Origin: Methanobacteriota archaeon
Lineage (GTDB): Archaea; Thermoplasmatota; Thermoplasmata; SG8-5; JAGLSY01
Reading direction: 5' to 3'
Assembly (NCBI GenBank): GCA_020696385.1
Contig: JAEHCQ010000001.1
Span: 288,001 to 352,000, forward strand
DNA: 64,000 bases
Shown: piece by piece, positions 42,496 to 64,000 of the stretch
Layout: each line of letters begins with the position of its first letter
Numbering within the stretch: position 1 is the stretch's first letter
Position numbers and translations under genes: made by a program
The notes under the pieces: model-generated
Database searches by the model: none
The model's input: the letters and a program-made list of their open reading frames with translations, nothing else
What the model was told of the DNA's origin: nothing

Positions 42496-45309
42496 ATGAA
42501 ATTGAAATTATTAGCAGTCACAGTGACTGCCATGTTGATAATGAGTGGGTTTGGACTATTAGCTGTTAGTGGTGACACTGGAGAATCGGTCCAACTGAAT
42601 AGTGGAGTAACTGCCAGTTATGGCCTCATTCCAGATTATGAGCCAAATGCATTCGTACCCAGGACGATCCTCATGGAGGACTTCACGAATTGGGGATGTG
42701 TTCCCTGTGCGGATTACGCCACATATTTGGACCCGGCACTGGACAATTACAATTATGAAGAGATCGCACCAATTTACTATCATTGGTACTTCCCAGATCC
42801 AGAAGATGCAGTAGACAATTACATGGAACTGGAGCAGGATCCGACAGAGGTCGAGGTCTACTATTCGAGACAGAGGAATGATAACAACTATGCGCCCAAC
42901 ACATACATTGATGGTTGGGACTATCCTGAGACCCGGGATCAAGCTGCACTCGAATCGTATTTTGACGGGCGCTTGAACCAATCAGCATACCCTGCCAATA
43001 TTACAATAACCACTTCAGGTGCTATTGACGATATTGGGCTGACTGGCTCAATTGACATCAATGTCATGATAGAAGAGCCTATTTCAAACGCTGGGGACCT
43101 GAGATTGTTCGCTCAATTATGGGAGAATAACATCACAAGGACCGTTCAGGGAGATGCACCACCATATCCAAATGGTGAAACGTGGATGAGATGGGCATGC
43201 TGGGATATGGTGCTGACCGAGGACGGATATGATATTTCAGCATTGGATACCCCTGGGGAATATATAGACCTCAATGTGCCTTTCGACATTGAAGCGGAAT
43301 GGGATCCTGACGAGATTGGAATGACGGTGTTTGTAACACATGCGACTATTGACAATTACTTGGTTGAACAGGCCAAAGTCGAGCTCTTTGACAATGCTGC
43401 TCCGGCAGTGACATTGGTGTCTCCAGCCCCCGCAGTTGCCGAGCAGATCTTGAGCGGTTCTGTGGACATTGAATGGACAGCTTCAGATCTTGAAGATGTG
43501 GATGATTCCACCCTTGATATCTCCATTGATTATAGTGCAGATGGCGGTTCATCATGGACAACCATTTATTCCGGAACTGACAACAATGTTGCTCCATACA
43601 CATACACGTGGGACACCACAACTGCAATAGAAGGTGACGGAATTGGCTACAAGATTAAAGTCATAGCTGTTGATTCAGGAGGTTTTACTGGCAATGGCGC
43701 AAGTCAGGAATTGCTTTCAATAGACAATGTCGTGGATGACACATGGTTCTTCCAGATGGATGGGCCTTTTGACCTTAATACGGCACCTGCAGAGACAAGT
43801 GCTAATATTGCAACGGTAATCGTACCTGACGGTGGAGATTATCTGGTAGGGGCCTGGGAGACCACACAGACCTTCTCAGGTAAGAGCATAAACGGCGATT
43901 GGACATTCAACGTATATGGAAAGAGCCCTGATCCTCAGTTACAAGGTTACCTGTATGCCAAGATGTTCACATCATCAAATCCTGGAACTCCATTGGATAC
44001 AACCATTCTTGACACAGAGGATGTAGGAACCTTCCAGGCAAGCAATCTTTTCACTTGGACAGATTCATTGACTGGAACAATTGGAGATGGAGACGGCGTG
44101 ATCGTAGAGATTTGGTTAAGTGCAGTAGGAGGCCCATGGCCACCATTATCACTCGAATCCGCCAATCCTGGATTTGATACTGGTACCACTTCATGGACTT
44201 ATGCCGATGTTGCAGACGGAAATGGAGATGTTACCGGGAATCATCAAACCTCCGCAGGGAATCCTGGTGGTTATGTTGATGTTTACATGACTCCCCCCAC
44301 AAGAGGTTCAGATCCAAGAGAGATAGGGTGTGGTTACTGGGAGATCCCAATAACTACAGGGTGCATACCTTCTGTAGCTACCTTGGAATTCGATTGGACT
44401 TGCTTGCAGGTGGGCAGTGATCTAGAATTCACTTATGCCTATGTCTTCCTCGACACATGGTCAGGCGGACCAGGTGGAGGAACCCCTGACCTTATTTCAG
44501 CTTCGGTTTGGAATCAAGCTGTAAGCTCAACCTCAGGCTGGGCTTCAGTTGGTCCCATTGATGTGAGTGGTATCATGAATGCTGACACCACATACTTCCT
44601 GAAGCTGGTGTGGAGAACTGCTTATCTTAGAGGTTCTGGCACTTATGAGTTAGGATTTGACAATGCCAAGGTATCCTGGGAACAACCATCACCATCGTTT
44701 GAAATGGAATACGATTATGGTACAACGCAGTCAAATGTTGAGCCAACCATCGGGACCGGAGCACCACCAGTGAACTACGATGTCGACACTAGCGCAGCAG
44801 TAGCTGGAGATTGGGTCTTTGTATCATTCCCAATAACTGCATCCGGAGATGTGTTAACAGTTCTCGATGATGCGAACTGGGGTAATGGCGACACCACATG
44901 GGAGACCATCTGCTGGTACGATCCAACTGAGGTCGATCATTGGAAGACCTATGACAAGGCACAATTCGCTGCTGGTATCGCACAGGACATGCCAAACGTG
45001 AACAATGCTATGGGCATGTGGGTGAAACTCACAACAGCAGGAGCACTCCTGACTGTTGGCCAGGGACAAGAACCAACAAGCACAGGTATCAGTCTGGATG
45101 CTGGTTGGAACCTAGTTGGTTATCCCGCACAGGATGATTCAACCTACGATGTTCTGGACCTGAAAACAGCGACAGGCGCATCCATGGTTGAAGGCTACGG
45201 TGCTGGACCATACGGAATCGTCACACTCGCAGACAACTATGTCTTGCAGCGTGGTGAGGCGTACTGGGTCTATGTCGGAGTCGGCGGAACCTGGACAGTC
45301 AACTGGTAA
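42496..45309 (+). CDS. Secreted Omp28/thioredoxin-like (CxxC) modular protein with shared C-terminal domain
   Basis: Signal peptide; LMEDFTNWGCVPC; APNTYIDG; C-terminal 177 aa nearly identical to the S8 protease. ATG 42496 follows GAGGAGG; track start is 42466. Confidence 0.82.
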   Translation: MKLKLLAVTVTAMLIMSGFGLLAVSGDTGESVQLNSGVTASYGLIPDYEPNAFVPRTILMEDFTNWGCVPCADYATYLDPALDNYNYEEIAPIYYHWYFPDPEDAVDNYMELEQDPTEVEVYYSRQRNDNNYAPNTYIDGWDYPETRDQAALESYFDGRLNQSAYPANITITTSGAIDDIGLTGSIDINVMIEEPISNAGDLRLFAQLWENNITRTVQGDAPPYPNGETWMRWACWDMVLTEDGYDISALDTPGEYIDLNVPFDIEAEWDPDEIGMTVFVTHATIDNYLVEQAKVELFDNAAPAVTLVSPAPAVAEQILSGSVDIEWTASDLEDVDDSTLDISIDYSADGGSSWTTIYSGTDNNVAPYTYTWDTTTAIEGDGIGYKIKVIAVDSGGFTGNGASQELLSIDNVVDDTWFFQMDGPFDLNTAPAETSANIATVIVPDGGDYLVGAWETTQTFSGKSINGDWTFNVYGKSPDPQLQGYLYAKMFTSSNPGTPLDTTILDTEDVGTFQASNLFTWTDSLTGTIGDGDGVIVEIWLSAVGGPWPPLSLESANPGFDTGTTSWTYADVADGNGDVTGNHQTSAGNPGGYVDVYMTPPTRGSDPREIGCGYWEIPITTGCIPSVATLEFDWTCLQVGSDLEFTYAYVFLDTWSGGPGGGTPDLISASVWNQAVSSTSGWASVGPIDVSGIMNADTTYFLKLVWRTAYLRGSGTYELGFDNAKVSWEQPSPSFEMEYDYGTTQSNVEPTIGTGAPPVNYDVDTSAAVAGDWVFVSFPITASGDVLTVLDDANWGNGDTTWETICWYDPTEVDHWKTYDKAQFAAGIAQDMPNVNNAMGMWVKLTTAGALLTVGQGQEPTSTGISLDAGWNLVGYPAQDDSTYDVLDLKTATGASMVEGYGAGPYGIVTLADNYVLQRGEAYWVYVGVGGTWTVNW

Positions 45310-54429: not shown

Positions 54430-54825
54430 TCATTTTGAAAAATCGAACCAATAAGGCATTTTACGAAACCTATAATGATCCTTTATCTGCTCTCTGTAAA
54501 GCTCCTTGTAAAACTCATTGAACTTCCTGGCATGAAGCACACCTTCCCTGGTTATGAAGATCTTGTACCTGCCATCCACCTTCTCCATCTTGATAAAACC
54601 ATCTTCCAGAAGTGCCTGGATGACCTTTTCCGTCATGTAATGATTGGAGCGAATTTCATGCTTGATATCTTCCTTGGACAGGGGGTGTGTGAACTCCTCA
54701 AGAAGCATGTCCAATTTTTCTTCCAATCCTGTCTGATAAAGGTCTATGCCCAGCTCGGATACCAGGCGATTGAGAACAAAACAAGAATATATCTTTGAAT
54801 CCTTGTATCTTCTCTCTTCGGGCAT
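54430..54825 (-). CDS. Winged helix-turn-helix protein
   Basis: LSKEDI...LLEDGFI....GRYKIFITREG wing pattern. Confidence 0.65.
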   Translation of the reverse strand: MPEERRYKDSKIYSCFVLNRLVSELGIDLYQTGLEEKLDMLLEEFTHPLSKEDIKHEIRSNHYMTEKVIQALLEDGFIKMEKVDGRYKIFITREGVLHARKFNEFYKELYREQIKDHYRFRKMPYWFDFSK

Positions 54826-54905: not shown

Positions 54906-55691
54906 TCATTTCAATTTCTTGACCCTTTTGCCTATCATCTTTTTGATATCTTCATAGGATGGGGGTGGCCCCTTTTGAGCGACCTTACCATCAATATACA
55001 CGGCATCCAGTATTCCCCATTCATGGAAGGTCGCCATATTGAAAGTATCGATTTCCTGAAAATCCACTTTATCACCGAATTCAACCGCCGCCCGCTTAGC
55101 TCTTTCAAAAACGATATTACTGGCTGGACACCATCCATTCTTGAATGCCATCACCGTGACCTTTCCTGGATCGGTCCGTGGCTTTTTCACCTGCTTGACC
55201 CATTTTGGAGGTTTCGCATCATCCGTGAAAGGCTTCCACAAGAGCACCGCCATGCCATCCTTGTCAACCGCCTTGTATCCCTGCTTCTTGAACCAACTGG
55301 CCTTCATCCAGAAAGGCATTGACACACCCCAGGCCGCAATACCCTTTGCGCCCTTCTGCATAGCATCTTCCTCGGCAGCTTTCAAAAGAGCCTTTCCCAT
55401 GCCCTTCTTCTGAAAATTTCCACGTCCTTCTTTGTAGCCATGGACCCAGACACACAAGATGAAGTAAAGATCATTGCCTTCGACATGAGATCTCTCGATC
55501 GGTAGATACTGGATCATTCCACCAATATTCTCCTCATCATCGGTGGCAAGCTTTGCCATGAAACCGGAATCCCTCATATTATTCAACCATTTTTCTTTGT
55601 GATTCCCAGATTCTTTCATCTCCTCGCTCCAGTCTTCAAGGCAGTTGCAGAACAGTTCTTCATGCTCAGATGATAGGTCAATGATCTTCAT
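54906..55691 (-). CDS. GNAT acetyltransferase with C-terminal thioredoxin-like/YoaP-like domain
   Basis: GMIQYLP, FQKKGMGKALL, NGWCP and VYIDGK....GPP motifs. Confidence 0.8.
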   Translation of the reverse strand: MKIIDLSSEHEELFCNCLEDWSEEMKESGNHKEKWLNNMRDSGFMAKLATDDEENIGGMIQYLPIERSHVEGNDLYFILCVWVHGYKEGRGNFQKKGMGKALLKAAEEDAMQKGAKGIAAWGVSMPFWMKASWFKKQGYKAVDKDGMAVLLWKPFTDDAKPPKWVKQVKKPRTDPGKVTVMAFKNGWCPASNIVFERAKRAAVEFGDKVDFQEIDTFNMATFHEWGILDAVYIDGKVAQKGPPPSYEDIKKMIGKRVKKLK

Positions 55692-55786
55692 TGGATGATG
55701 ATGTGTTTCCGGACTTAATAGTCTTTTGAATGGGGAAAGATATTAGAAAGTGGAGGCAATCTATGACCTATATTGGAGTTGAAATA

Positions 55787-56014
55787 ATGGAAATACATGA
55801 CAGAGTTGAAGCAGCCCTGGAAAAGGTAAGACCCGGATTGATGATGGATGGCGGAAATGTCGAGCTTGTCGAGGTAACTGACGATAATATCGTCAAAGTG
55901 AAACTTGTCGGAGCTTGCGGTGGCTGTCCAATGAGCCAGATGACCCTGAAAATGTTCATCGAAAAGGTTGTCAAGGAAAATGTTCCAGAGATCAAATCAG
56001 TAGAGAATATATAG
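55787..56014 (+). CDS. NifU/Nfu-type Fe-S cluster carrier
   Basis: VRP.LMMDGGNVE, GACGGCP.S.MTLK. Start is uncertain (55763 or 55787). Confidence 0.9.
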   Translation: MEIHDRVEAALEKVRPGLMMDGGNVELVEVTDDNIVKVKLVGACGGCPMSQMTLKMFIEKVVKENVPEIKSVENI

Positions 56015-56099
56015 GATTAATTTTCCATTTATTCAATTGGAGCATAAGCTAATATCGATAGATATGTACATTTATCATTATCATTTCTCATAATTGACA

Positions 56100-56462
56100 T
56101 TATACATCATTCATCAATTTCTTCAGCTTCCTGTAGAATTCTTCCTCATCTATTCGGCCTTCTGAATAATATCTGTAAAGTTCCTTTGTGGCCTGCTGTC
56201 TCAGATGGATCGCTCCAACAAAGACCACGATAGCCATTATTCCAAAGGATAATAGGGATATGATCCCCCCTATCCTTCCAGGGGTCAATTCCCATGATGG
56301 CTCACTGGTCTCTTCAATAGGTGTTCTCATAAAAAACCCCTCCTCTTCTACATTCTCCTGCGGCATTGGCATCATCAGATACATGCCAAGCAGGAATATC
56401 ACTGTACATCCGATCGCTGCTAAAGCGAATAGTATAGATCCTTTCTTCATCTCTATCACCAT
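56100..56462 (-). CDS. Small membrane protein with C-terminal SHOCT-like motif
   Basis: Two TM helices; LYRYYSEGRIDEEEFYRK. Confidence 0.7.
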   Translation of the reverse strand: MVIEMKKGSILFALAAIGCTVIFLLGMYLMMPMPQENVEEEGFFMRTPIEETSEPSWELTPGRIGGIISLLSFGIMAIVVFVGAIHLRQQATKELYRYYSEGRIDEEEFYRKLKKLMNDV

Positions 56463-56472
56463 AACCTACTAT

Positions 56473-56527
56473 AGTGGTCAAAGTTCATAACCAAAATGAG
56501 GAAAAATGACCACTTACTGGTCACTTT
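56473..56527 (+). repeat. Left 55-bp inverted repeat
   Basis: 48/55 match to the reverse complement of 62316-62370; outer 19 bp identical; contains TGACCA-N5-TGGTCA (56507-56523). Confidence 0.92.
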
Positions 56528-56581
56528 CACCCTACTCCCCCCTGTTCTTATTCTTATACCTCGGACGACTATCTTTACATA

Positions 56582-57805
56582 ATGGTGACATTAGATAAGA
56601 TAGTCCGATTGGCAAATGAAGGCCAATTCGATTCTTCTGGCCCGAAGATCTATGACCTGAACAATATCAATATGCAGAAGGTCAAGACACTGGGTGAGGG
56701 GACGAAACATGATATCTGCGCATCCACAGCATCAAAGCGGCAGGTGGCGGATGTCTCGGGCAGAATAGGAGATGTGGTGAAAGCTGGAGTATGCCATGCT
56801 TTCACTCCTGATGGTCGTTGTGTAGGGATGTTCAAGACCCTTTTCACGAACGCGTGCCAGCATGAATGTAAATATTGTCCAAATGCCACATTGAGCCATC
56901 GCCCGAAGATCCAGAAATACACACCTGAAGAATTGGCCAAGCTCACGCTCATGCTTTATCGCGGCAATTATGTAGAGGGTCTTTTTTTGAGTTCCGGTAT
57001 TGCTGGCAATGAGGATCAGACCATGGAGGATATGATCGAATCCGTTAGACTTCTCAGAGAGAAATATAGTTTCCAGGGTTACATTCATATGAAGATCCTC
57101 CCGGGCGCGTCCTATGAGCATATCAAGCAGGCCAGTGAGCTTGTGGATCGTGTCAGCATAAATATTGAAACACCTTCGAAATCATACATGAGCGAACTCA
57201 GCTCGACCAAGGATTATGACAATGATATTCTTCAGCGTCAGAAGTACATTCGCCATAATATTGGCAAGGGTCGATTTCCCGCTGGCCAGACAACCCAATT
57301 CATCGTAGGAGCGGCACAGGAAACTGACAAAGAGATATTCAAATCCATGCTGAATGAGTATGAGGAGATGGAGGTGAAAAGATCATATTTTTCAGCATTC
57401 AATTCAGTGAAGGGGACGGAGCTGGAGAACACGCCATCACAACCCCAATGGCGTGAGAATAAACTGTATCAAGTGGATTGGCTGCACAGGATATACAAGT
57501 TCCAGAATAAGGAGATAGAGCATGCCTTTGATGAGGATGGATTCCTTTTCAATAAGGATCCGAAACTGTCCATCGCTCTCAATATCATAGACTCAGCCAT
57601 AGATCCGAACGAGGCCACCCAGGAACAGCTTTTGAGAATTCCTGGTATTGGCCCAAAGAGCGCGTATGGCATACTGAAATTACGAAAAAGAGAAAGGATA
57701 TGGAAAAATGAGCAACTGGCTCGAATCGGGGTGGTGACCAAACGAGCCAGGTACTTCTTGAAATTGAACGGGTGGGAATACTCCTCGCTGGAGGATTGGT
57801 CATGA
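56582..57805 (+). CDS. Putative DNA modification/repair radical SAM protein (TIGR03916-like) with HhH motif
   Basis: GVCHAFTPDGRC, CQHECKYC, EGLFLSSG, GYIHMKILPG, AGQTTQFIVGA, RE.KLYQ.DWL.RIY and LLRIPGIGPKSA motifs. Confidence 0.92.
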   Translation: MVTLDKIVRLANEGQFDSSGPKIYDLNNINMQKVKTLGEGTKHDICASTASKRQVADVSGRIGDVVKAGVCHAFTPDGRCVGMFKTLFTNACQHECKYCPNATLSHRPKIQKYTPEELAKLTLMLYRGNYVEGLFLSSGIAGNEDQTMEDMIESVRLLREKYSFQGYIHMKILPGASYEHIKQASELVDRVSINIETPSKSYMSELSSTKDYDNDILQRQKYIRHNIGKGRFPAGQTTQFIVGAAQETDKEIFKSMLNEYEEMEVKRSYFSAFNSVKGTELENTPSQPQWRENKLYQVDWLHRIYKFQNKEIEHAFDEDGFLFNKDPKLSIALNIIDSAIDPNEATQEQLLRIPGIGPKSAYGILKLRKRERIWKNEQLARIGVVTKRARYFLKLNGWEYSSLEDWS

Positions 57806-57842
57806 AATTAATGAGTAATATGAATTTCATGGAGTTGGTAAT

Positions 57843-58436
57843 TTGATAAGCCATGTGCCAAACGAATTTCTTCAGTATCTCAAACTTCACAAGGACTGCT
57901 CCCCATCACTAATGAACAAAGCATCTGGCCTATGTTCGCAACAGCTGGATGTTTCTACAGATTTGGAGCATATCAGGATAAGGAAAATGGTGAATAGCGT
58001 ACTGACGGAGATACATCTCATGAGGGCTTTCGTGCGGCTTTCCCCCATCGGTGAGAAGGTGCTTTACGGTTATATCAAGCCCAAGCATGACATCGTTCCA
58101 AGGGTGGGATATTTTCTTTCCAGGAGATTCCCGAACACGATAATCATACTGGGAAACAATACCAGAAGCTGGATATCCATCAATAATAATGGCAAGACCA
58201 CCAGATCCAAGGGCGGTCCACTGTCCGAAACAGTGGAGCGCGTTAAGGATCAGATGGCGGATAATAAAGAGGCAGATACTGAAGACCTGTGGAAAACATA
58301 CTATTGGAGCCAGTACATCGATGATAGAAGGAATGTCAAGTATCACAAGAAGAATATGCCCAAAAAACACATGGATGCGACCGGTATCAAAGTGGCTAGA
58401 AATCAAAACAAAATAACATTGGATGATTTTGAATAG
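57843..58436 (+). CDS. DUF4130 / TIGR03915-like partner protein
   Basis: EIH.MRAFVR, P.HDI, F.RRF, LWKTYY.S....R.N......MPKK; usual position after the rSAM gene; TTG start. Confidence 0.82.
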   Translation: MISHVPNEFLQYLKLHKDCSPSLMNKASGLCSQQLDVSTDLEHIRIRKMVNSVLTEIHLMRAFVRLSPIGEKVLYGYIKPKHDIVPRVGYFLSRRFPNTIIILGNNTRSWISINNNGKTTRSKGGPLSETVERVKDQMADNKEADTEDLWKTYYWSQYIDDRRNVKYHKKNMPKKHMDATGIKVARNQNKITLDDFE

Positions 58437-58472
58437 GCCTAAATTCTAATACGATGCACACTTGTAGATAAT

Positions 58473-59309
58473 ATGATGAAAGGAAAGGTAGTTATCATAA
58501 CGGGAGCCACGTCCGGCATAGGAAAGGAGACCGCCCTCAGCCTGGCAGAGATGGGAGCTACCATCGTTATAGCGGCCCGGAATATCGAAGCTGGAGAGAA
58601 GGTCAAGAAGGAAATAATCCAAGCCACCAAGAACAACAATATCGATTGCTTTCAATGTGATCTGACCTCCCTGGATTCAGTAAGGGAGTTCTGCGATAGT
58701 TTCAAAGAAAAATATGAACGTCTTGACGTACTCATCAATAATGCTGGCACTTGGGATTTTGAAGGAAGAAAAGAAAGCAAAGACATGATAGAGAATATCT
58801 TTGCAGTGAACTTTGTAGCTCCTTTTCTCATGACCCATATTCTTATTGATATGCTAAAGAAAAGTGCTCCATCCAGAATTATCAGTCTTTCTTCGGGCCT
58901 TCATACGGGCACGATAAACTTTGATGATATCGAGTTCAAAGAGGACTGGTCCGGGTTCAAGGCCTACCGCCAATCTAAATTAGCGATCATCCTTTTCACA
59001 AGGAAGCTGGCCAATGATCTTAAAGATGCGAGTGTGACGGTCAATTGCATCCATCCAGGAATGGTATCGACCAAACTGGGAAGAGATGCTGGAGGGGTTT
59101 CAAAATTGTTCTTCAGGGTATTCGGCAAAAAACCCAAGGTTGGAGCAGAGACATCCATCTACCTTGCCAGTTCTCCAGATGGAGGAACGATCACTGGTGA
59201 ATATTGGTACAAATGCAAGGTGGGCAAGGCATCGGATGAATCCATGGATCTGGAGGCCGCTGAAAGATTGTGGAAGGTTGGATTGGATTATATTGGAGCT
59301 GTGAAGTAA
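58473..59309 (+). CDS. SDR oxidoreductase (retinol-dehydrogenase-like)
   Basis: TGATSGIG, LINNAG, YRQSK and HPGMV motifs. Confidence 0.92.
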   Translation: MMKGKVVIITGATSGIGKETALSLAEMGATIVIAARNIEAGEKVKKEIIQATKNNNIDCFQCDLTSLDSVREFCDSFKEKYERLDVLINNAGTWDFEGRKESKDMIENIFAVNFVAPFLMTHILIDMLKKSAPSRIISLSSGLHTGTINFDDIEFKEDWSGFKAYRQSKLAIILFTRKLANDLKDASVTVNCIHPGMVSTKLGRDAGGVSKLFFRVFGKKPKVGAETSIYLASSPDGGTITGEYWYKCKVGKASDESMDLEAAERLWKVGLDYIGAVK

Positions 59310-59310
59310 T

Positions 59311-59898
59311 ATGGAGATAACAGAGACATTCTATGCAAAGAACCGCAAAGAATGGCGGAATTGGCTAGAGACCAATCATGATTCCAAAAAGGAGATTTGG
59401 TTGATCAGATACAAGAAGCATACTGGAAAGCCAGTGGTGAGCTATGATGATTCCGTAGAGGAAGCATTGTGCTTTGGATGGATCGACTCCACTGTCAAAA
59501 GAGTTGATGATGAATATTATGTCCAGCGTATAACTCCAAGAAGAATGAAAAGTATCTGGTCAGTCCCAAACATCAAGCGGGTGAGGAAGATGTTGGACGA
59601 AGGCTTGATGACAGAACATGGGCTGGCCAAAATACCGGATGAGGTGATGGAAGCTGCTAAGACTGGCAATGTAATATCGTCGCAGACCGTGATACCAGAT
59701 GAGATACCGATGATTCGGGAGCTTGAAGAAGCACTGGCCGATAATAAGAAGGCCAGTGATACCTGGGACTCGCTGACACCGTCCCTGAGAAAGCGATATA
59801 TATACTGGATAAATGATGCAAAGAGGGATGAGACCCGCATTCGGCGTATCGATAAGTTGGTCAAAATGCTGGAAGATGGGAAACAAGAGTTGATGTGA
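59311..59898 (+). CDS. YdeI/OmpD-associated family protein
   Basis: WRNWL..NH, EALCFGWIDS, TPRR..S.WS and AKRDETR..R motifs. Confidence 0.9.
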   Translation: MEITETFYAKNRKEWRNWLETNHDSKKEIWLIRYKKHTGKPVVSYDDSVEEALCFGWIDSTVKRVDDEYYVQRITPRRMKSIWSVPNIKRVRKMLDEGLMTEHGLAKIPDEVMEAAKTGNVISSQTVIPDEIPMIRELEEALADNKKASDTWDSLTPSLRKRYIYWINDAKRDETRIRRIDKLVKMLEDGKQELM

Positions 59899-59902
59899 TA
59901 TT

Positions 59903-60460
59903 ATGACAGGCGAACCAATGATCGTGCCCGATATTCAAACAGAGAGAATGACACTTCGCCAGCTGACAGAAGATGATATGGATTTCATCTTCGACATGTT
60001 CAGCAGGCCGGAGACCAACCTGTATGTGGCGGATGATGATGTCAAGACCATGGAGGAAGCCGTGGAACTCTACGAGACCTTCATCAAACCAAAACCATAC
60101 CTTTTCAGACTGGGCATGGTGTTGAAAGAAGATGGCAATCTCATCGGAACCCTGGGCTTATATGGAATAAACATTGAAGATAGAAAGGGGAAGTTGGGAG
60201 TCGATCTCTTCAAGGAGCATTGGGGAAAAGGATTGATGAGCGAGGCCGTGCAGGCTCTGATACGATACGGGTTCGAGGAAATGAATTTGAACAGGATAGA
60301 GGCCTCGGCAGACCCGGGTAACCACAGATCTCTCAACCTCATCAAGAGAACTGGCATGGTCAAGGAAGGCGTGAAGAGGCAGGTGGATTGGTATGAGGGG
60401 AGATTCCACGATGATGTGTTATTTTCCATACTTCGAGAAGAATGGCAAGCTCGTAATTAA
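59903..60460 (+). CDS. GNAT acetyltransferase, RimJ/RimL-like
   Basis: TERMTLR, WGKGLMSEA and LNRIEA...N..S motifs. Confidence 0.9.
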   Translation: MTGEPMIVPDIQTERMTLRQLTEDDMDFIFDMFSRPETNLYVADDDVKTMEEAVELYETFIKPKPYLFRLGMVLKEDGNLIGTLGLYGINIEDRKGKLGVDLFKEHWGKGLMSEAVQALIRYGFEEMNLNRIEASADPGNHRSLNLIKRTGMVKEGVKRQVDWYEGRFHDDVLFSILREEWQARN

Positions 60461-60463
60461 AGA

Positions 60464-61084
60464 TCAAACCTTACCCCAGATGAACTTCCTGGCTCCATCG
60501 TCTGGAACAGTGGCGATGAAGGCATATAGGTTTCTCTTTTTTAGGTCTGGTAGGTCACCGATCTCCAATATCTTCCTTACAAATTTCAGAGCCGCGTAGA
60601 ATCTTGTTGTAAGCTCTTGTTGATGGTACTCATCCGCTCTCCTCGAACTGGTGATGATCGCGGCAAATATCTTGGGAGATCTGGCACTGTTCACCATCAG
60701 GAGTTTGGTAAGGTCCTGGGCGATCAGTCTTTCATCGTACATTCTCGGACCCTTCCATTCGACAAATATCGGAACATTATCCCTTATCACGAAATCAAAA
60801 TTACCAGCCTGTCCTCTATTCAGAGCAGCTCGTTGCGTTGTCTTCGGCCTGCCCAATCCGAATTCTTTCCAGGCATACTTCACAAGGGTCGGATGATTGG
60901 GTATGAGCATGGGTCTTTTCCACACATCGACCCCTTCCATCTCATAGTGCTTTGAAACATAATGCGAGAACTGGTGATGGAAATATTCTTCATTCAGTAT
61001 CAGTCCTCTCTTTCCAGCTCTGACGGTCTCTTCAGTATTGTCCAGTATCTGGTCAAAGATGGATTGTATGTCTCTTATCCTCAT
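60464..61084 (-). CDS. Hypothetical protein with possible PD-(D/E)xK nuclease fold
   Basis: LNEEYF helix, GNFDFVI...FVEWK and QDLTKL; antisense to its neighbours. Confidence 0.55.
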   Translation of the reverse strand: MRIRDIQSIFDQILDNTEETVRAGKRGLILNEEYFHHQFSHYVSKHYEMEGVDVWKRPMLIPNHPTLVKYAWKEFGLGRPKTTQRAALNRGQAGNFDFVIRDNVPIFVEWKGPRMYDERLIAQDLTKLLMVNSARSPKIFAAIITSSRRADEYHQQELTTRFYAALKFVRKILEIGDLPDLKKRNLYAFIATVPDDGARKFIWGKV

Positions 61085-61181
61085 GATATCACTGTCCCCT
61101 GTGACTATATGGCAATATTATTATTAAATCATACCGAAGCGATTCAATAAACTCTTTATCACATTACTACAATCACAACCC

Positions 61182-62231
61182 ATGGTCCAGGATTTCAAAT
61201 GCCAAAGCTGTGCCGCTCCCCTCAAATTCGATCCCAGTGAGAAAGGATTGAAGTGTGAATATTGTGGGTCCACAGAGGTCATCATGGTTGAGAGAAAGGC
61301 CATTCTGGAACATGACCTTTTTTCTGCCCCAGCCAACATTGGCTGGGGCACGAATACCAAGAGCATCACATGCGAATCCTGCGGAGCGAAGACATCGGCC
61401 GATCTGAAGATATCCGGGAATTGCGCCTTTTGTGGTTCCAATTTTGTCAAGGAATTGGAACCAGATCCAAACCTGATAAGGCCAGAGAGTTTGATACCCT
61501 TTTCAATAGAGAAGGACAATGCACTGTCTCTTTTCAAAAAATGGCTGGGTAAGGGATTTTTCCGTCCATCCAATCTAAAAAAGCTTGGTAGACTGAAGAA
61601 CATACATGGTATCTACATCCCCTTCTGGACATATGATTGTAATGCCCACTCAAATTGGACTGCCATGAGCGGTTATCATTACTACGTCACCGAGACCTAT
61701 AGGACAGATGAAGGAACAAAGACCAGACAGGTTCGAAAGACGAGATGGGTTCCATCGAATGGGAGAAGGCAGGGATTTTACAATGATGTTCTCGTGCCAG
61801 CTTCCAAAGGTCTGGATCATGATCTTGCAAGTAAGATATATCCATTCCATCTCCAACAATTGACACCGTACAAGTCTGAATTCCTCGCAGGCTGGATGGC
61901 CGAGGAATATGCAATATCATTGCCTGAAGGATGGCTGGTCGCACAGAAAAAGGTTCGAAGTTCAGAATACTCCGAATGCTCCAGAGATGTCCCAGGCGAC
62001 ACGCATACAGGGTTAAGCGTACACACGACCCTGACTGATCCAAAATACAAGCATGTTCTACTCCCTGTCTGGGTCGCCTCCTATCATTATAAGAAAAAAC
62101 TTTATCATTTTCTTGTCAATGGACAGACTGGAGAGGTACAGGGCGAGGCTCCGATATCTTGGCTCAAGGTCGCAGCTGTGATCCTTGCTGTAGCGGGTGT
62201 GGTCATGACTATCTGGCTATTATCGAATTGA
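61182..62231 (+). CDS. Zinc-ribbon protein with C-terminal TM helix
   Basis: Four CxxC motifs, P..LIPF, YIPFWTYD, LLPVW and VNGQTGEV.GEAP.S..K; C-terminal TM helix. Confidence 0.82.
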   Translation: MVQDFKCQSCAAPLKFDPSEKGLKCEYCGSTEVIMVERKAILEHDLFSAPANIGWGTNTKSITCESCGAKTSADLKISGNCAFCGSNFVKELEPDPNLIRPESLIPFSIEKDNALSLFKKWLGKGFFRPSNLKKLGRLKNIHGIYIPFWTYDCNAHSNWTAMSGYHYYVTETYRTDEGTKTRQVRKTRWVPSNGRRQGFYNDVLVPASKGLDHDLASKIYPFHLQQLTPYKSEFLAGWMAEEYAISLPEGWLVAQKKVRSSEYSECSRDVPGDTHTGLSVHTTLTDPKYKHVLLPVWVASYHYKKKLYHFLVNGQTGEVQGEAPISWLKVAAVILAVAGVVMTIWLLSN

Positions 62232-62315
62232 TGCTCCTCCTTCTTTATCATATATCATAATATGATCATTGTATTATGATTCAATGATACTACTGGCATA
62301 TATTTTTGATTCTGA

Positions 62316-62370
62316 AAAGTGACCATAAAGTGGGGATTTTTGCTCAATTTAGTTATGAACTTTGACCACT
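62316..62370 (-). repeat. Right 55-bp inverted repeat
   Basis: Reverse complement matches 56473-56527 at 48/55 positions. Confidence 0.92.
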
Positions 62371-62417
62371 CTATTTAGTATTAGACTTCGGGAAAAGGGG
62401 TCTAGGATGTGAAAAAA

Positions 62418-62546
62418 ATGAACTACAATAAAAAAGTCGTGCAGGCATTGAGAAAGGTTGGCCGAACGGTCAGATCAGAGCTAACAGCAGCAGAAAGAGC
62501 GAGCCCAGCTGTATTGAGACATGTGGCAGCCCACTGGGGCGGTTGA
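62418..62546 (+). CDS. Micro-ORF 1 (42 aa, basic)
   Basis: MNYNKKVVQALRKVGRTVRSELTAAERASPAVLRHVAAHWGG; GGATGTGA SD-like element upstream. Confidence 0.5.
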   Translation: MNYNKKVVQALRKVGRTVRSELTAAERASPAVLRHVAAHWGG

Positions 62547-62571
62547 TCAGGAAGATGATGGAGGTAAGAAC

Positions 62572-62691
62572 ATGATAAAAATATTGATAGATGCGATACA
62601 CAAATCTGTTAAGGACGATGATACAGTTGGAAAAGACAAGAAAATAAGCCCTTCGCTCAATTGCATCCCTCTTTACGATAGAGCAGTATAA
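62572..62691 (+). CDS. Micro-ORF 2 (39 aa)
   Basis: MIKILIDAIHKSVKDDDTVGKDKKISPSLNCIPLYDRAV; GGAGGT SD 6 nt upstream. Confidence 0.55.
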   Translation: MIKILIDAIHKSVKDDDTVGKDKKISPSLNCIPLYDRAV

Positions 62692-62708
62692 AGTGGGAGA
62701 GTGCCAAG

Positions 62709-62840
62709 ATGATCGTAACAGTAAAACATGACCTTTATGCTGATCTTCAGAGGATCGAGAATAGGGGGAAAAAGAATGCAAAGAAATTTTCTATCCTCAA
62801 TATCCTGAGCAGATCTAAAAGAAGAACTGGAGGGAGATAG
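62709..62840 (+). CDS. Micro-ORF 3 (43 aa, basic; similar to the N-terminus of the 63759 ORF)
   Basis: MIVTVKHDLYADLQRIENRGKKNAKKFSILNILSRSKRRTGGR; GGGAGAG SD; motif shared with 63759. Confidence 0.65.
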   Translation: MIVTVKHDLYADLQRIENRGKKNAKKFSILNILSRSKRRTGGR

Positions 62841-62948
62841 ATGAGTGATCAGGATGAATTTACAAACACCATTAGACTCCTTCTCTTTGGAGAGGATGAT
62901 GAAGATAAAATAGCAGATATTGAGATAGCAGACCATTCGCCAATATGA
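62841..62948 (+). CDS. Micro-ORF 4 (35 aa, acidic)
   Basis: MSDQDEFTNTIRLLLFGEDDEDKIADIEIADHSPI; GGAGGGAG SD; ATG abuts the previous TAG. Confidence 0.55.
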   Translation: MSDQDEFTNTIRLLLFGEDDEDKIADIEIADHSPI

Positions 62949-63032
62949 ATGGTCGACTATCTCCCCTCATTTTGATCATTATTACATTTTATACACCATG
63001 TTTAAAATATTTTCATCCACATATCCCGGCTC

Positions 63033-63575
63033 ATGCAGGGTTTGGAGATAAAAAGAATTCCCAGAGAAGAGCTGATTGACAGGGTTACGATATTTTCCTA
63101 CGAATCAGACAGCTATTATCGTGTGACCATCAATGAAAAGAATGATGGGTGGTCGATAGATCTTAAGCGTAAGGAGTTCCCCCAGACCTTTATAAAAAAT
63201 GATTCCACAGATAAGCTAGTACATGATTTCAAGGGAGATTCAGAGATATATCTGGCATACCTTGATGGAAAGGAAGCTGGTCAGTTGCAGATCGAGTTCC
63301 AAGAATACAATAAAAGCATAAGAGTTTGGGATATAGATATCTGGCCAGGATACCGTAGAAAGGGTATCGGAAAGGCTCTTATGGACCTGTGTAAGAAGAG
63401 AGCGGTGGATATCAATGCCAGACGTATAGTTCTGGAAGTGCAATCATCGAACTCAAAGGCAATTGAATTCTACCTGGCCATGGGCTTCAAGCTCATTGGA
63501 TTGGATGGAAGCCATTATTGTAATGATGATATGGATAGAGGAGAGGTCAGATTGGAGATGGCCATACACCTTTGA
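63033..63575 (+). CDS. GNAT acetyltransferase (streptothricin-acetyltransferase-like)
   Basis: YRRKGIGKALM and LEVQSSN..AI.FY..MGF.L.GLD motifs. Confidence 0.9.
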   Translation: MQGLEIKRIPREELIDRVTIFSYESDSYYRVTINEKNDGWSIDLKRKEFPQTFIKNDSTDKLVHDFKGDSEIYLAYLDGKEAGQLQIEFQEYNKSIRVWDIDIWPGYRRKGIGKALMDLCKKRAVDINARRIVLEVQSSNSKAIEFYLAMGFKLIGLDGSHYCNDDMDRGEVRLEMAIHL

Positions 63576-63650
63576 TCTTGATAATATATTTTACACTCGA
63601 GTAAAAGGCAAATATAAATGCCTTATTTTCTCAAGCAACAATCTATTGCT

Positions 63651-63685
63651 ATTATGTGACAATAGTGATGCATTATGTGACAATA
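63651..63685. promoter_or_regulatory. 14-bp direct repeat, 21-bp period, upstream of the 63759 ORF
   Basis: ATTATGTGACAATA at 63651-64 and 63672-85. Confidence 0.5.
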
Positions 63686-63758
63686 TTAGATTAGGCATTA
63701 AAAACATATTTATGATAGTTCCAACAATGGGCAATATGTATTTTGATTGGGTGAAGAC

Positions 63759-64000
63759 ATGGGTCGCGACATATACGCAGATTTGGAAAAGATAGAGGAA
63801 CGCGGAAAGCGTAAGAAAAAGGGATTCCTTTCTTTCATGGGCGGAAAGGAGCCAGGGGAAGAATCGCCCCCAGTTCACACAGTTTCTGCCTTCAGTGGTA
63901 ACCCGGACCCACCGACAGCTCCAACTCCCAAGCCAAAGCCTGTGGAGCAGGAGATCATTGAGACCGAGGAATGGATACCACTCAAGGGTCGAAAATTAAA
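63759..64000 (+). CDS. Partial CDS running off the window; basic N-terminal helix then Pro-rich linker
   Basis: GGGTGA SD; open frame MGRDIYADLEKIEERGKRKKKGFLSFMGGKEPGEESPP... to the window end. Confidence 0.7.
   Translation, partial: MGRDIYADLEKIEERGKRKKKGFLSFMGGKEPGEESPPVHTVSAFSGNPDPPTAPTPKPKPVEQEIIETEEWIPLKGRKL

Follow-up and report, generated by a model that had tools for sequence, protein, structure and literature searches.

The subject here is a pair of short, outward-facing DNA elements in a genome from the archaeal class Thermoplasmata. They lie in a stretch of 64,000 nucleotides (hereafter, the window), corresponding to positions 288,001 to 352,000 of contig JAEHCQ010000001.1 (contig C11 of genome G000, which is 2.28 Mb in size and 94% complete). 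Seven genes, encoded on both strands between positions 56582 and 62231, are enclosed by the two arms of a long inverted repeat. The left arm faces, on the minus strand, a gene for a 116-amino-acid (aa) membrane protein with a weak SHOCT-like C-terminus (56100–56450). The right arm faces, on the plus strand, a putative operon (62409–63575). This comprises small open reading frames (ORFs) at 62409–62546, 62572–62691, 62709–62840 and 62841–62948, followed by a gene for a GNAT acetyltransferase (63033–63575). An earlier note on this DNA offered two explanations. In one, the arms bound a cargo transposon or an invertible segment. In the other, they are duplicated promoters or operators, pointing outward. 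We weigh these and other possibilities below.

The enclosed genes, or ‘cargo’, are as follows. On the plus strand are a radical S-adenosylmethionine (rSAM) protein (56582–57805), matching profile TIGR03916 with 349 bits, above the cut-off, and a DUF4130 protein (57843–58436), matching TIGR03915 below the cut-off. These are followed, on the same strand, by SDR (58473–59309), YdeI/OmdA (59311–59898) and GNAT (59903–60460) family proteins. An unnamed 206-aa ORF is encoded on the minus strand (60464–61084) and a 349-aa double zinc-ribbon membrane protein on the plus strand (61182–62231). The earlier note named the same five families, and these assignments stand. The two further ORFs match no family and have no Pfam, NCBIfam or solved-structure relative. 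Note that the DUF4130 protein, the partner of the rSAM (TIGR03916) protein, is short, at 197 aa. It covers only positions 103–236 of the 243-position TIGR03915 profile, and scores 89 bits against a cut-off of 112.

A search of positions 55000–64000 for inverted repeats identified the arms at 56470–56527 and 62316–62373. They are 58 nucleotides (nt) in length and 86% complementary, and are separated by 5788 nt. The inverted repeats that come next in length, in this region, are 24–26 nt. Aligned with blastn, the left and right arms are identical at 48 of 55 positions (87.3%) and the outer 19 nt match perfectly. With up to three mismatches allowed, this 19-mer has two matches in the window, compared to 0.02 expected, and none of 100 shuffles contained two or more. 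Hence, the repeat described in the earlier note, with arms at 56473–56527 and 62316–62370, withstands all three analyses.

Relatives of G000 were used for comparison. These were three congeners (G001, G002 and G003), the 22 genomes of the order, and a sample of 201 genomes from the class (179 of them outside the order). We refer to the two arms in the window as the left and right copies. A blastn search with the arm, against the genome and its relatives, had been suggested as a way to separate the two explanations. Outside of the pair in the window, our searches detected only unpaired copies, in promoter positions. Exactly three copies of the 19-mer are present in G000: the two arms and a third at 44415–44433 of contig C33 (the C33 copy). 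More sensitive searches added none. The C33 copy is unpaired and sits upstream of two genes, one for an N-terminally anchored protein of 107 aa and the other for a membrane protein of 211 aa. It is 92% identical to the right arm over 52 nt, compared to 87% for the left and right arms. The similarity between the right arm and the C33 copy extends 19 nt outward beyond the arm end, across the CTAT and as far as window position 62389. It then returns at 17 nt, AGGATGTGAAAAAAATG, which include a ribosome-binding site and start codon. Since the likeness continues for 19 nt, and resumes at AGGATGTGAAAAAAATG, it spans a promoter-leader region and does not stop at a transposon end.

Separately, a repeat of ~95 nt, with two strong hairpins (minimum free energy of -45.5 kcal/mol over 118 nt), occurs between the C33 copy and its ribosome-binding site (L003:1524–1640; C33 ~44438–44554). 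It is also present at the orthologous site in G002 (contig C29, L017). At least 14 further partial copies are found in G000, on contigs C11, C22, C33, C44, C46, C47 and C48. The repeat has no match in Rfam and looks like a small element of the miniature inverted-repeat transposable element (MITE) or repetitive extragenic palindromic (REP) type.

True, diverged copies in other genera were identified with a 16-mer, allowing up to two mismatches, and by inspection of context. A degenerate 38-nt pattern, with up to three mismatches, gave 16 matches in 11 of the 201 class genomes. All 11 are within the order to which the window belongs. None of the 179 genomes outside the order matched, and a reversed control pattern gave no matches. 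With a more diverged copy from G004, the total rises to 17, and 12 of the 22 genomes in the order have one to three copies each. A copy cut off at the end of contig C390 of G001 was left out of this count. Exact matches to a degenerate pattern were found in nine stretches among 185,579 species genomes. All are metagenome-assembled genomes of Thermoplasmata/‘Methanomassiliicoccales’, with one match in each 8-kb stretch, and no genome was added to those already compared. The metagenome and viral contigs searched contained no match to the degenerate patterns. In the literature, covered at the level of abstracts and not exhaustively, we found no description of the motif, or of start-site maps for the lineage.

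All 17 copies align over 70 columns without a gap, and we use these columns to number positions. Mean pairwise identity between genera is 0.29 in the 42 nt upstream of column 1 and 0.31 in columns 1–15. Identity then increases to 0.68 (columns 16–32), 0.60 (columns 33–50) and 0.84 (columns 51–65), before returning to 0.43 (columns 66–85) and 0.33 (columns 86–125). The conserved block is therefore the 50 nt of columns 16–65, with identities between genera of 0.60–0.84, compared to 0.29–0.33 in the flanks. In the window, this block corresponds to 56474–56523 on the minus strand (left copy), which aligns with the 16 others without a gap, and 62320–62369 on the plus strand (right copy).

Repeated TGACCA half-sites had been noticed in both arms. 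This proved correct and, across the 17 copies, there are three such half-sites at fixed spacing. Half-site A (TGACCA, columns 16–21) retains at least five of six letters in 8 copies, half-site B (TGGTCA, columns 27–32) in 13, and half-site C (TTGACCA(C), columns 58–65) in all 17. At least one of A and B is retained, by the same measure, in every copy. Together, A and B form the palindrome TGACCA-N5-TGGTCA (6-N5-6). Two further boxes lie between the half-sites: a conserved TTTT-CTC box (columns 34–41) and a TATGAAC box, within which TATG (columns 50–53) is invariant. From centre to centre, A and B are 11 bp apart, and B and C 33 bp apart, in all 17 copies. These distances equate to one and about three helical turns. 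Hence, A, B and C would be on one face of the helix. Such phased spacing matters for DNA and not for RNA. In the left copy, A (56518–56523), B (56507–56512) and C (56475–56480) are all on the minus strand; A and C match at six of six positions, B makes a perfect palindrome with A, and C is 33 bp from B. In the right copy, on the plus strand, A (62320–62325) and C (62363–62368) read TGACCA, and B (62331–62336) is a degenerate TGGGGA, matching at four of six positions.

Behind each of the 17 copies is a sequence resembling a ribosome-binding site (GGTGAT, AGGATGTGA or GGAGG), presumably complementary to the 3' end of 16S rRNA, and then a start codon. The genes that follow are of four types. Right-type copies (G000, G001, G012, G014 and the copy on contig C54 of G011) precede a 38–50-aa ORF, an ORF with a RIEERG motif, a further small ORF, and then a GNAT gene. 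This same operon follows the right-type copy in two families. Bactofilin-type copies (contig C82 of G011, G018 and G013) precede a 38–43-aa ORF and then a bactofilin gene. The C33-type copies (G000, G002, contig C8 of G003, and G005) precede a gene for an anchored protein of ~100 aa. Left-type copies (G000 and G002) precede the gene for the SHOCT-like protein. The start codon of this gene is likely the ATG at 56450, rather than 56462, since it is 4 nt after GGTGAT (56455–56460) and G002 uses the equivalent ATG.

In the window, the right copy is followed by AGGATGTGA and the ATG (62418) of the first small ORF, within 62404–62420 on the plus strand; the same 17 nt precede the gene behind the C33 copy. 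The small ORFs between 62409 and 62948 encode 45, 39, 43 and 35 aa. This run is not junk; counterparts in G001, G003, G012, G014 and G011 are found after the orthologous module. First small ORFs behind different copies align weakly with one another. Two tandem versions of the first small ORF appear to be present in the window (62409–62546 and 62572–62691). The 43-aa ORF (62709–62840; DLYADLQRIENRGKK) resembles the N-terminus of a larger ORF after the GNAT gene (63747–63998; DIYADLEKIEERGKRKKK), and also a 131-aa protein from G003. This small paralogous family has no Pfam match.

The observations themselves are the copies and where they lie, how far they are conserved, and the independence of one copy from another. 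From these, we consider it likely that the arms are independent copies of a lineage-specific cis-regulatory module of ~50 bp, a promoter or operator-leader region, with each copy facing its own gene. They would not then be the ends of a unit. This agrees with the second explanation in the earlier note, that of duplicated outward promoters or operators, which the unpaired third copy in a promoter position also favours. Consistent with this, orthologous copies in three families always face a ribosome-binding site and start. Hence, the arms would look like an inverted repeat simply because two outward-facing transcription units enclose a 5.7-kb block of ordinary genes. In our model, a putative dimeric, or higher-order, DNA-binding regulator would occupy the half-sites around the core promoter. 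The same regulator would control, together, the genes behind all copies, three of which are in G000. We infer the binding of protein, the position of the transcription start, and the choice between repression and activation.

Archaeal promoters have a TATA box ~26 nt before the start site, with the transcription factor B recognition element (BRE) upstream. We scored TATA-like boxes by the number of matches to TTTAWATA; a motif model made by expectation-maximization, from 35 tRNA upstream regions, was weak and unusable. Of the 9 copies from other genera, 7 have a canonical TATA-like box (TTTTAATA, TTTAATA) at columns -7 to -2; in G017 the box is at column +5. Within the block, the best TATA-like box (TTTAGTTA, TTGATATA) is at column 44 and is shared by 5 of the 17 copies, the right arm and C33 copy among them. 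The position of the first box predicts transcription starting near half-site B, with most of the block in the transcribed leader. The second predicts a start ~10 nt after half-site C. With the upstream box, A and B would bracket the start site and C would be in the leader. With the box at column 44, B and C would flank the TATA box symmetrically. Both arrangements are classic positions for an operator. Note that the left copy is ~55 bp from the ATG of the rSAM gene, which has its own TATA-like sequence, TTCTTATTCTTATAC. Since this is only 22–36 nt upstream of the ATG, the rSAM transcript may be leaderless. The left copy could also act on this divergent, apparently leaderless, promoter.

Several points weigh against a promoter or operator role. 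First, the case for such a function is built from position and conservation. Second, the core promoter cannot be placed with confidence, there being two TATA candidates, neither of which is universal. Third, no regulator gene is consistently beside the module copies. Fourth, the palindrome formed by A and B is not enriched elsewhere in G000. Thus, TGACCA-N5-TGGTCA, with up to one mismatch, is found in 16 places, compared to 5 for a control. Five of these are at the same internal position in paralogous genes encoding proteins of ~990 aa (C11:85–118 kb) and two are modules; once the paralogous coding repeats are removed, there is no enrichment. The putative regulon would therefore consist of full modules only. 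Finally, a DNA operator leaves unexplained the invariant ATG, and the mini-ORF that this opens in 16 of 17 copies (see below).

Two candidates for the regulator were discarded. Three copies have genes for AAA_16 ATPases upstream, but the family has at least 11 paralogues in G000, where none is next to a copy. Note that these AAA_16/STAND-type proteins, of ~1000 aa, are encoded in G000 on contigs including C11, C46, C49, C44, C2, C48 and C33. A winged-helix-like ORF in the window (54430–54825) has DNA matches in G006, G007, G008, G009, G016 and G020, all of which are free of the module. We also set aside the idea that the half-sites are replication-origin boxes: the copies are at three separate promoter positions and not around one AT-rich unwinding region.

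The best surviving alternative, though an unlikely one, is that the block acts post-transcriptionally as a 5' leader. Transcription would then start upstream of, or at, half-site B, and the invariant ATG would open a leader peptide of 7–10 codons (M-N/T-F/I/L-D-H/Q...) that controls translation of the next gene, with its stop codon within or adjoining the ribosome-binding site of that gene. The TGACCA boxes could still be an operator. Consistent with such a leader, 7 of the 9 copies from other genera have a TATA-like box that ends 21–25 nt before half-site B. Moreover, the ATG is at columns 51–53 of all 17 copies and opens a mini-ORF (M, then N/T/F/Y/S, F/I/L, D, H/Q/R and so on; MNFDH, for example). 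In 16 copies this has 7–10 codons before an in-frame stop and, in 7 copies, the stop is the TGA of GGTGAT. Changes between copies include CAC to CAT, which is synonymous, and exchanges between F, I and L. In the window, the left mini-ORF (56456–56488, minus strand) has 10 codons and a stop, with its TGA inside the GGTGAT at 56455–56460. The right mini-ORF (62355–62378, plus strand) has 7 codons and a stop.

Other properties of the mini-ORF are less easily reconciled with translation. The codon pattern is not clearly coding, and the most conserved position is the third one of codon 2. Codons 3–5 fall on half-site C, and its TGACCAC reads as the reverse complement of site B; this overlap alone can explain their conservation. 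No ribosome-binding site precedes the mini-ORF, and the in-frame stop follows from a fixed 30-nt spacing in related copies. Nor is there support for RNA structure. RNAalifold detected no consensus pair among 13 copies. The one plausible stem, between B and C, has no compensatory pairs, is 81.7% paired compared to 81.2% in column shuffles, and has its central U-A pair broken in 5 of 13 copies. The three G000 loci have no Rfam match at E values up to 1. On these grounds we rejected an RNA hairpin or riboswitch. The mini-ORF may be a leader peptide or, equally, a by-product of half-site C and fixed spacing. The substitutions fit neither decisively.

A bolder version of the promoter or operator module would combine both layers. 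The module would then be a previously undescribed control device, belonging to one order of Thermoplasmata, in which three phased TGACCA boxes carry an embedded leader ORF (MNFDH...) with a stop that overlaps the next ribosome-binding site. Output from a tiny regulon of small-protein operons would depend on transcription and leader translation together. These encode 38–50-aa proteins, then a bactofilin or GNAT acetyltransferase, small anchored proteins, and the SHOCT-like protein. We regard this as doubtful.

Of the explanations in which the arms belong together, inversion is the less improbable, though it is still very unlikely. Here, the 5.8-kb block would flip by site-specific or homologous recombination between the 86%-identical arms. 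Recombination between inverted repeats this long is possible in principle. However, no recombinase family was detected in or beside the segment, and inversion would exchange like promoters, so that no obvious switch results. The congeners also give inversion no support. G002, a genome of the same genus that is 93% complete and has 86% DNA identity, is colinear with window positions 54908–62231. A single alignment of 7341 nt takes in the left copy and the full set of seven cargo genes, with orientation unchanged. The alignment resumes at window positions 62995–63571. The intervening 763 nt (62232–62994), with the right arm and small-ORF run, are replaced in G002 by 41 nt of unrelated, AT-rich sequence, and no right-type copy is present elsewhere in that genome. 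The 763 nt that G002 lacks (L005:8830–8870) are present in G000, G001, G003 and the separate family f4; in G002, the GNAT gene is directly after the zinc-ribbon gene. Most simply, this is a deletion in G002.

In G003, NifU is followed by ~300 bp and then rSAM; there is no SHOCT-like gene, left copy or SDR gene. A right-type copy is directly after the zinc-ribbon gene. In G001, the 206-aa ORF is divergent from rSAM, and a right-type copy is before the small ORFs and GNAT gene. Within the order, the SHOCT-like protein was found in 2 of the 22 genomes, namely G000 and G002, and, among the four congeners, only G000 has the inverted pair. By this pattern of presence and absence, the right copy is old, and the left copy and its gene were added in the lineage of G000 and G002. 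Note that the NifU–rSAM spacer of G003 (L006:2150–2400) contains the 15-mer TCGGGCCTGGAAGTT at two places, separated by ~170 nt, on either side of a stretch with a GC-rich hairpin. Part of this repeat has a reverse-complement copy upstream of the module on contig C74 of G001. It may be another small inserted repeat.

The same comparisons bear on the idea of a non-autonomous cargo transposon, with the arms as terminal inverted repeats, CTAT as a target-site duplication, and a transposase acting in trans. This is extremely unlikely. What attracts attention to it is the length of the inverted arms, the exact match of their outer 19-mer, and the identical 4 nt found beyond each end. CTAT is indeed present at 56469–56472 and 62371–62374, as the earlier note stated, but does not qualify as a duplicated target. 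The right-hand CTAT, enclosed by the right mini-ORF, corresponds to alignment columns 67–70, and 7 of 17 copies have CTAT there. The six others are on contigs C33 of G000, C29 of G002, C74 of G001, C312 of G003, C31 of G004 and C11 of G017, and none belongs to such an inverted pair. Because of this, we conclude that CTAT is part of the motif and not a target-site duplication. The left-hand CTAT of G000 is a chance match of 4 nt in an AT-rich region; the orthologous left copy of G002 has CTTA at columns 67–70.

Beyond CTAT, we found neither a further pair of copies nor any element with these ends in the genome. G002 has the cargo with one arm, and G003 has the other arm without the first. The cargo also has a history of its own. 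Family f4, of the same order, includes G007, G012, G013, G014 and G018. There, genes for rSAM, DUF4130, GNAT and the 206-aa ORF are found in colinear order on one contig of each genome (G012:C35, G013:C180, G007:C3 and G018:C242; partially on G014:C33). The module copies of these genomes are on different contigs (G012:C6, G013:C97, G018:C189 and G014:C13), and G007 has no module that we could find. The GC content of the cargo (0.42–0.47) equals that of the flanks. As the earlier note had recorded for transposases, no transposase, recombinase or integrase family was matched among the seven cargo proteins and three neighbours, two of the former being the ORFs without any family match; the absence of matches in viral contigs also gives the transposon no help. 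These genes are ordinary chromosomal genes, not one mobile unit, and the gene order points to an old chromosomal neighbourhood. The first explanation in the earlier note, of a cargo transposon or invertible segment, does not pass the test which that note set for it. There is synteny across both ends in congeners, and we found no empty site for the whole unit, no autonomous partner and no other paired copies.

Our analysis thus removes a false lead: despite the striking 58-bp inverted repeat and the apparent target duplication, this is not a new cargo transposon. In its place is a probable cis-regulatory element, cleanly defined and conserved across an order of archaea for which metagenome-assembled genomes are the only source here. 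In these archaea, known elements of this kind are few, as are known regulators. The module boundaries, invariant positions and target genes are ready material for DNA-affinity or in vitro binding screens. The module also draws attention to several small, conserved ORFs that would escape automatic annotation. Promoters and operators are an ordinary kind of biology and so the value of the finding is modest.

Compared with known systems, the locus shares with MITEs, and other non-autonomous transposons, a pair of inverted arms with an identical 4 nt outside both. Unlike them, it has neither a family of paired-end copies nor a partner transposase, and no empty site is seen; in addition, the 4 nt are within a motif and each arm is orthologously conserved alone. 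As with Hin/Gin-type switches and shufflons, a segment lies between inverted repeats. Unlike those systems, there is no recombinase gene, no alternative orientation was seen, and the arms are putative promoters of the outward genes, as opposed to recombination sites. Upstream ORFs exert control in bacterial attenuation leaders and, through the MAGDIS upstream ORF, in eukaryotic S-adenosylmethionine (AdoMet) decarboxylase. Like these, the module has a very short conserved ORF directly before a gene, overlapping its ribosome-binding site. Unlike these, the ORF is known here from sequence, has no ribosome-binding site of its own, and has a conservation that a DNA half-site explains equally well. 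A further parallel is the glycolytic motif of Thermococcales, TATCAC-N5-GTGATA, which is bound by TrmB-family regulators and is a promoter-proximal 6-N5-6 operator. The module differs from TrmB-type operators in its sequence, in the extra phased half-site 33 bp away, in its two further boxes, and in having only one to three copies per genome; its regulator is also putative. In common with TrmB-type operators, it has palindromic half-sites with a 5-nt spacer next to a core promoter, recurs upstream of several operons that are unlinked but belong to one lineage, and is conserved across genera where its flanks are not.

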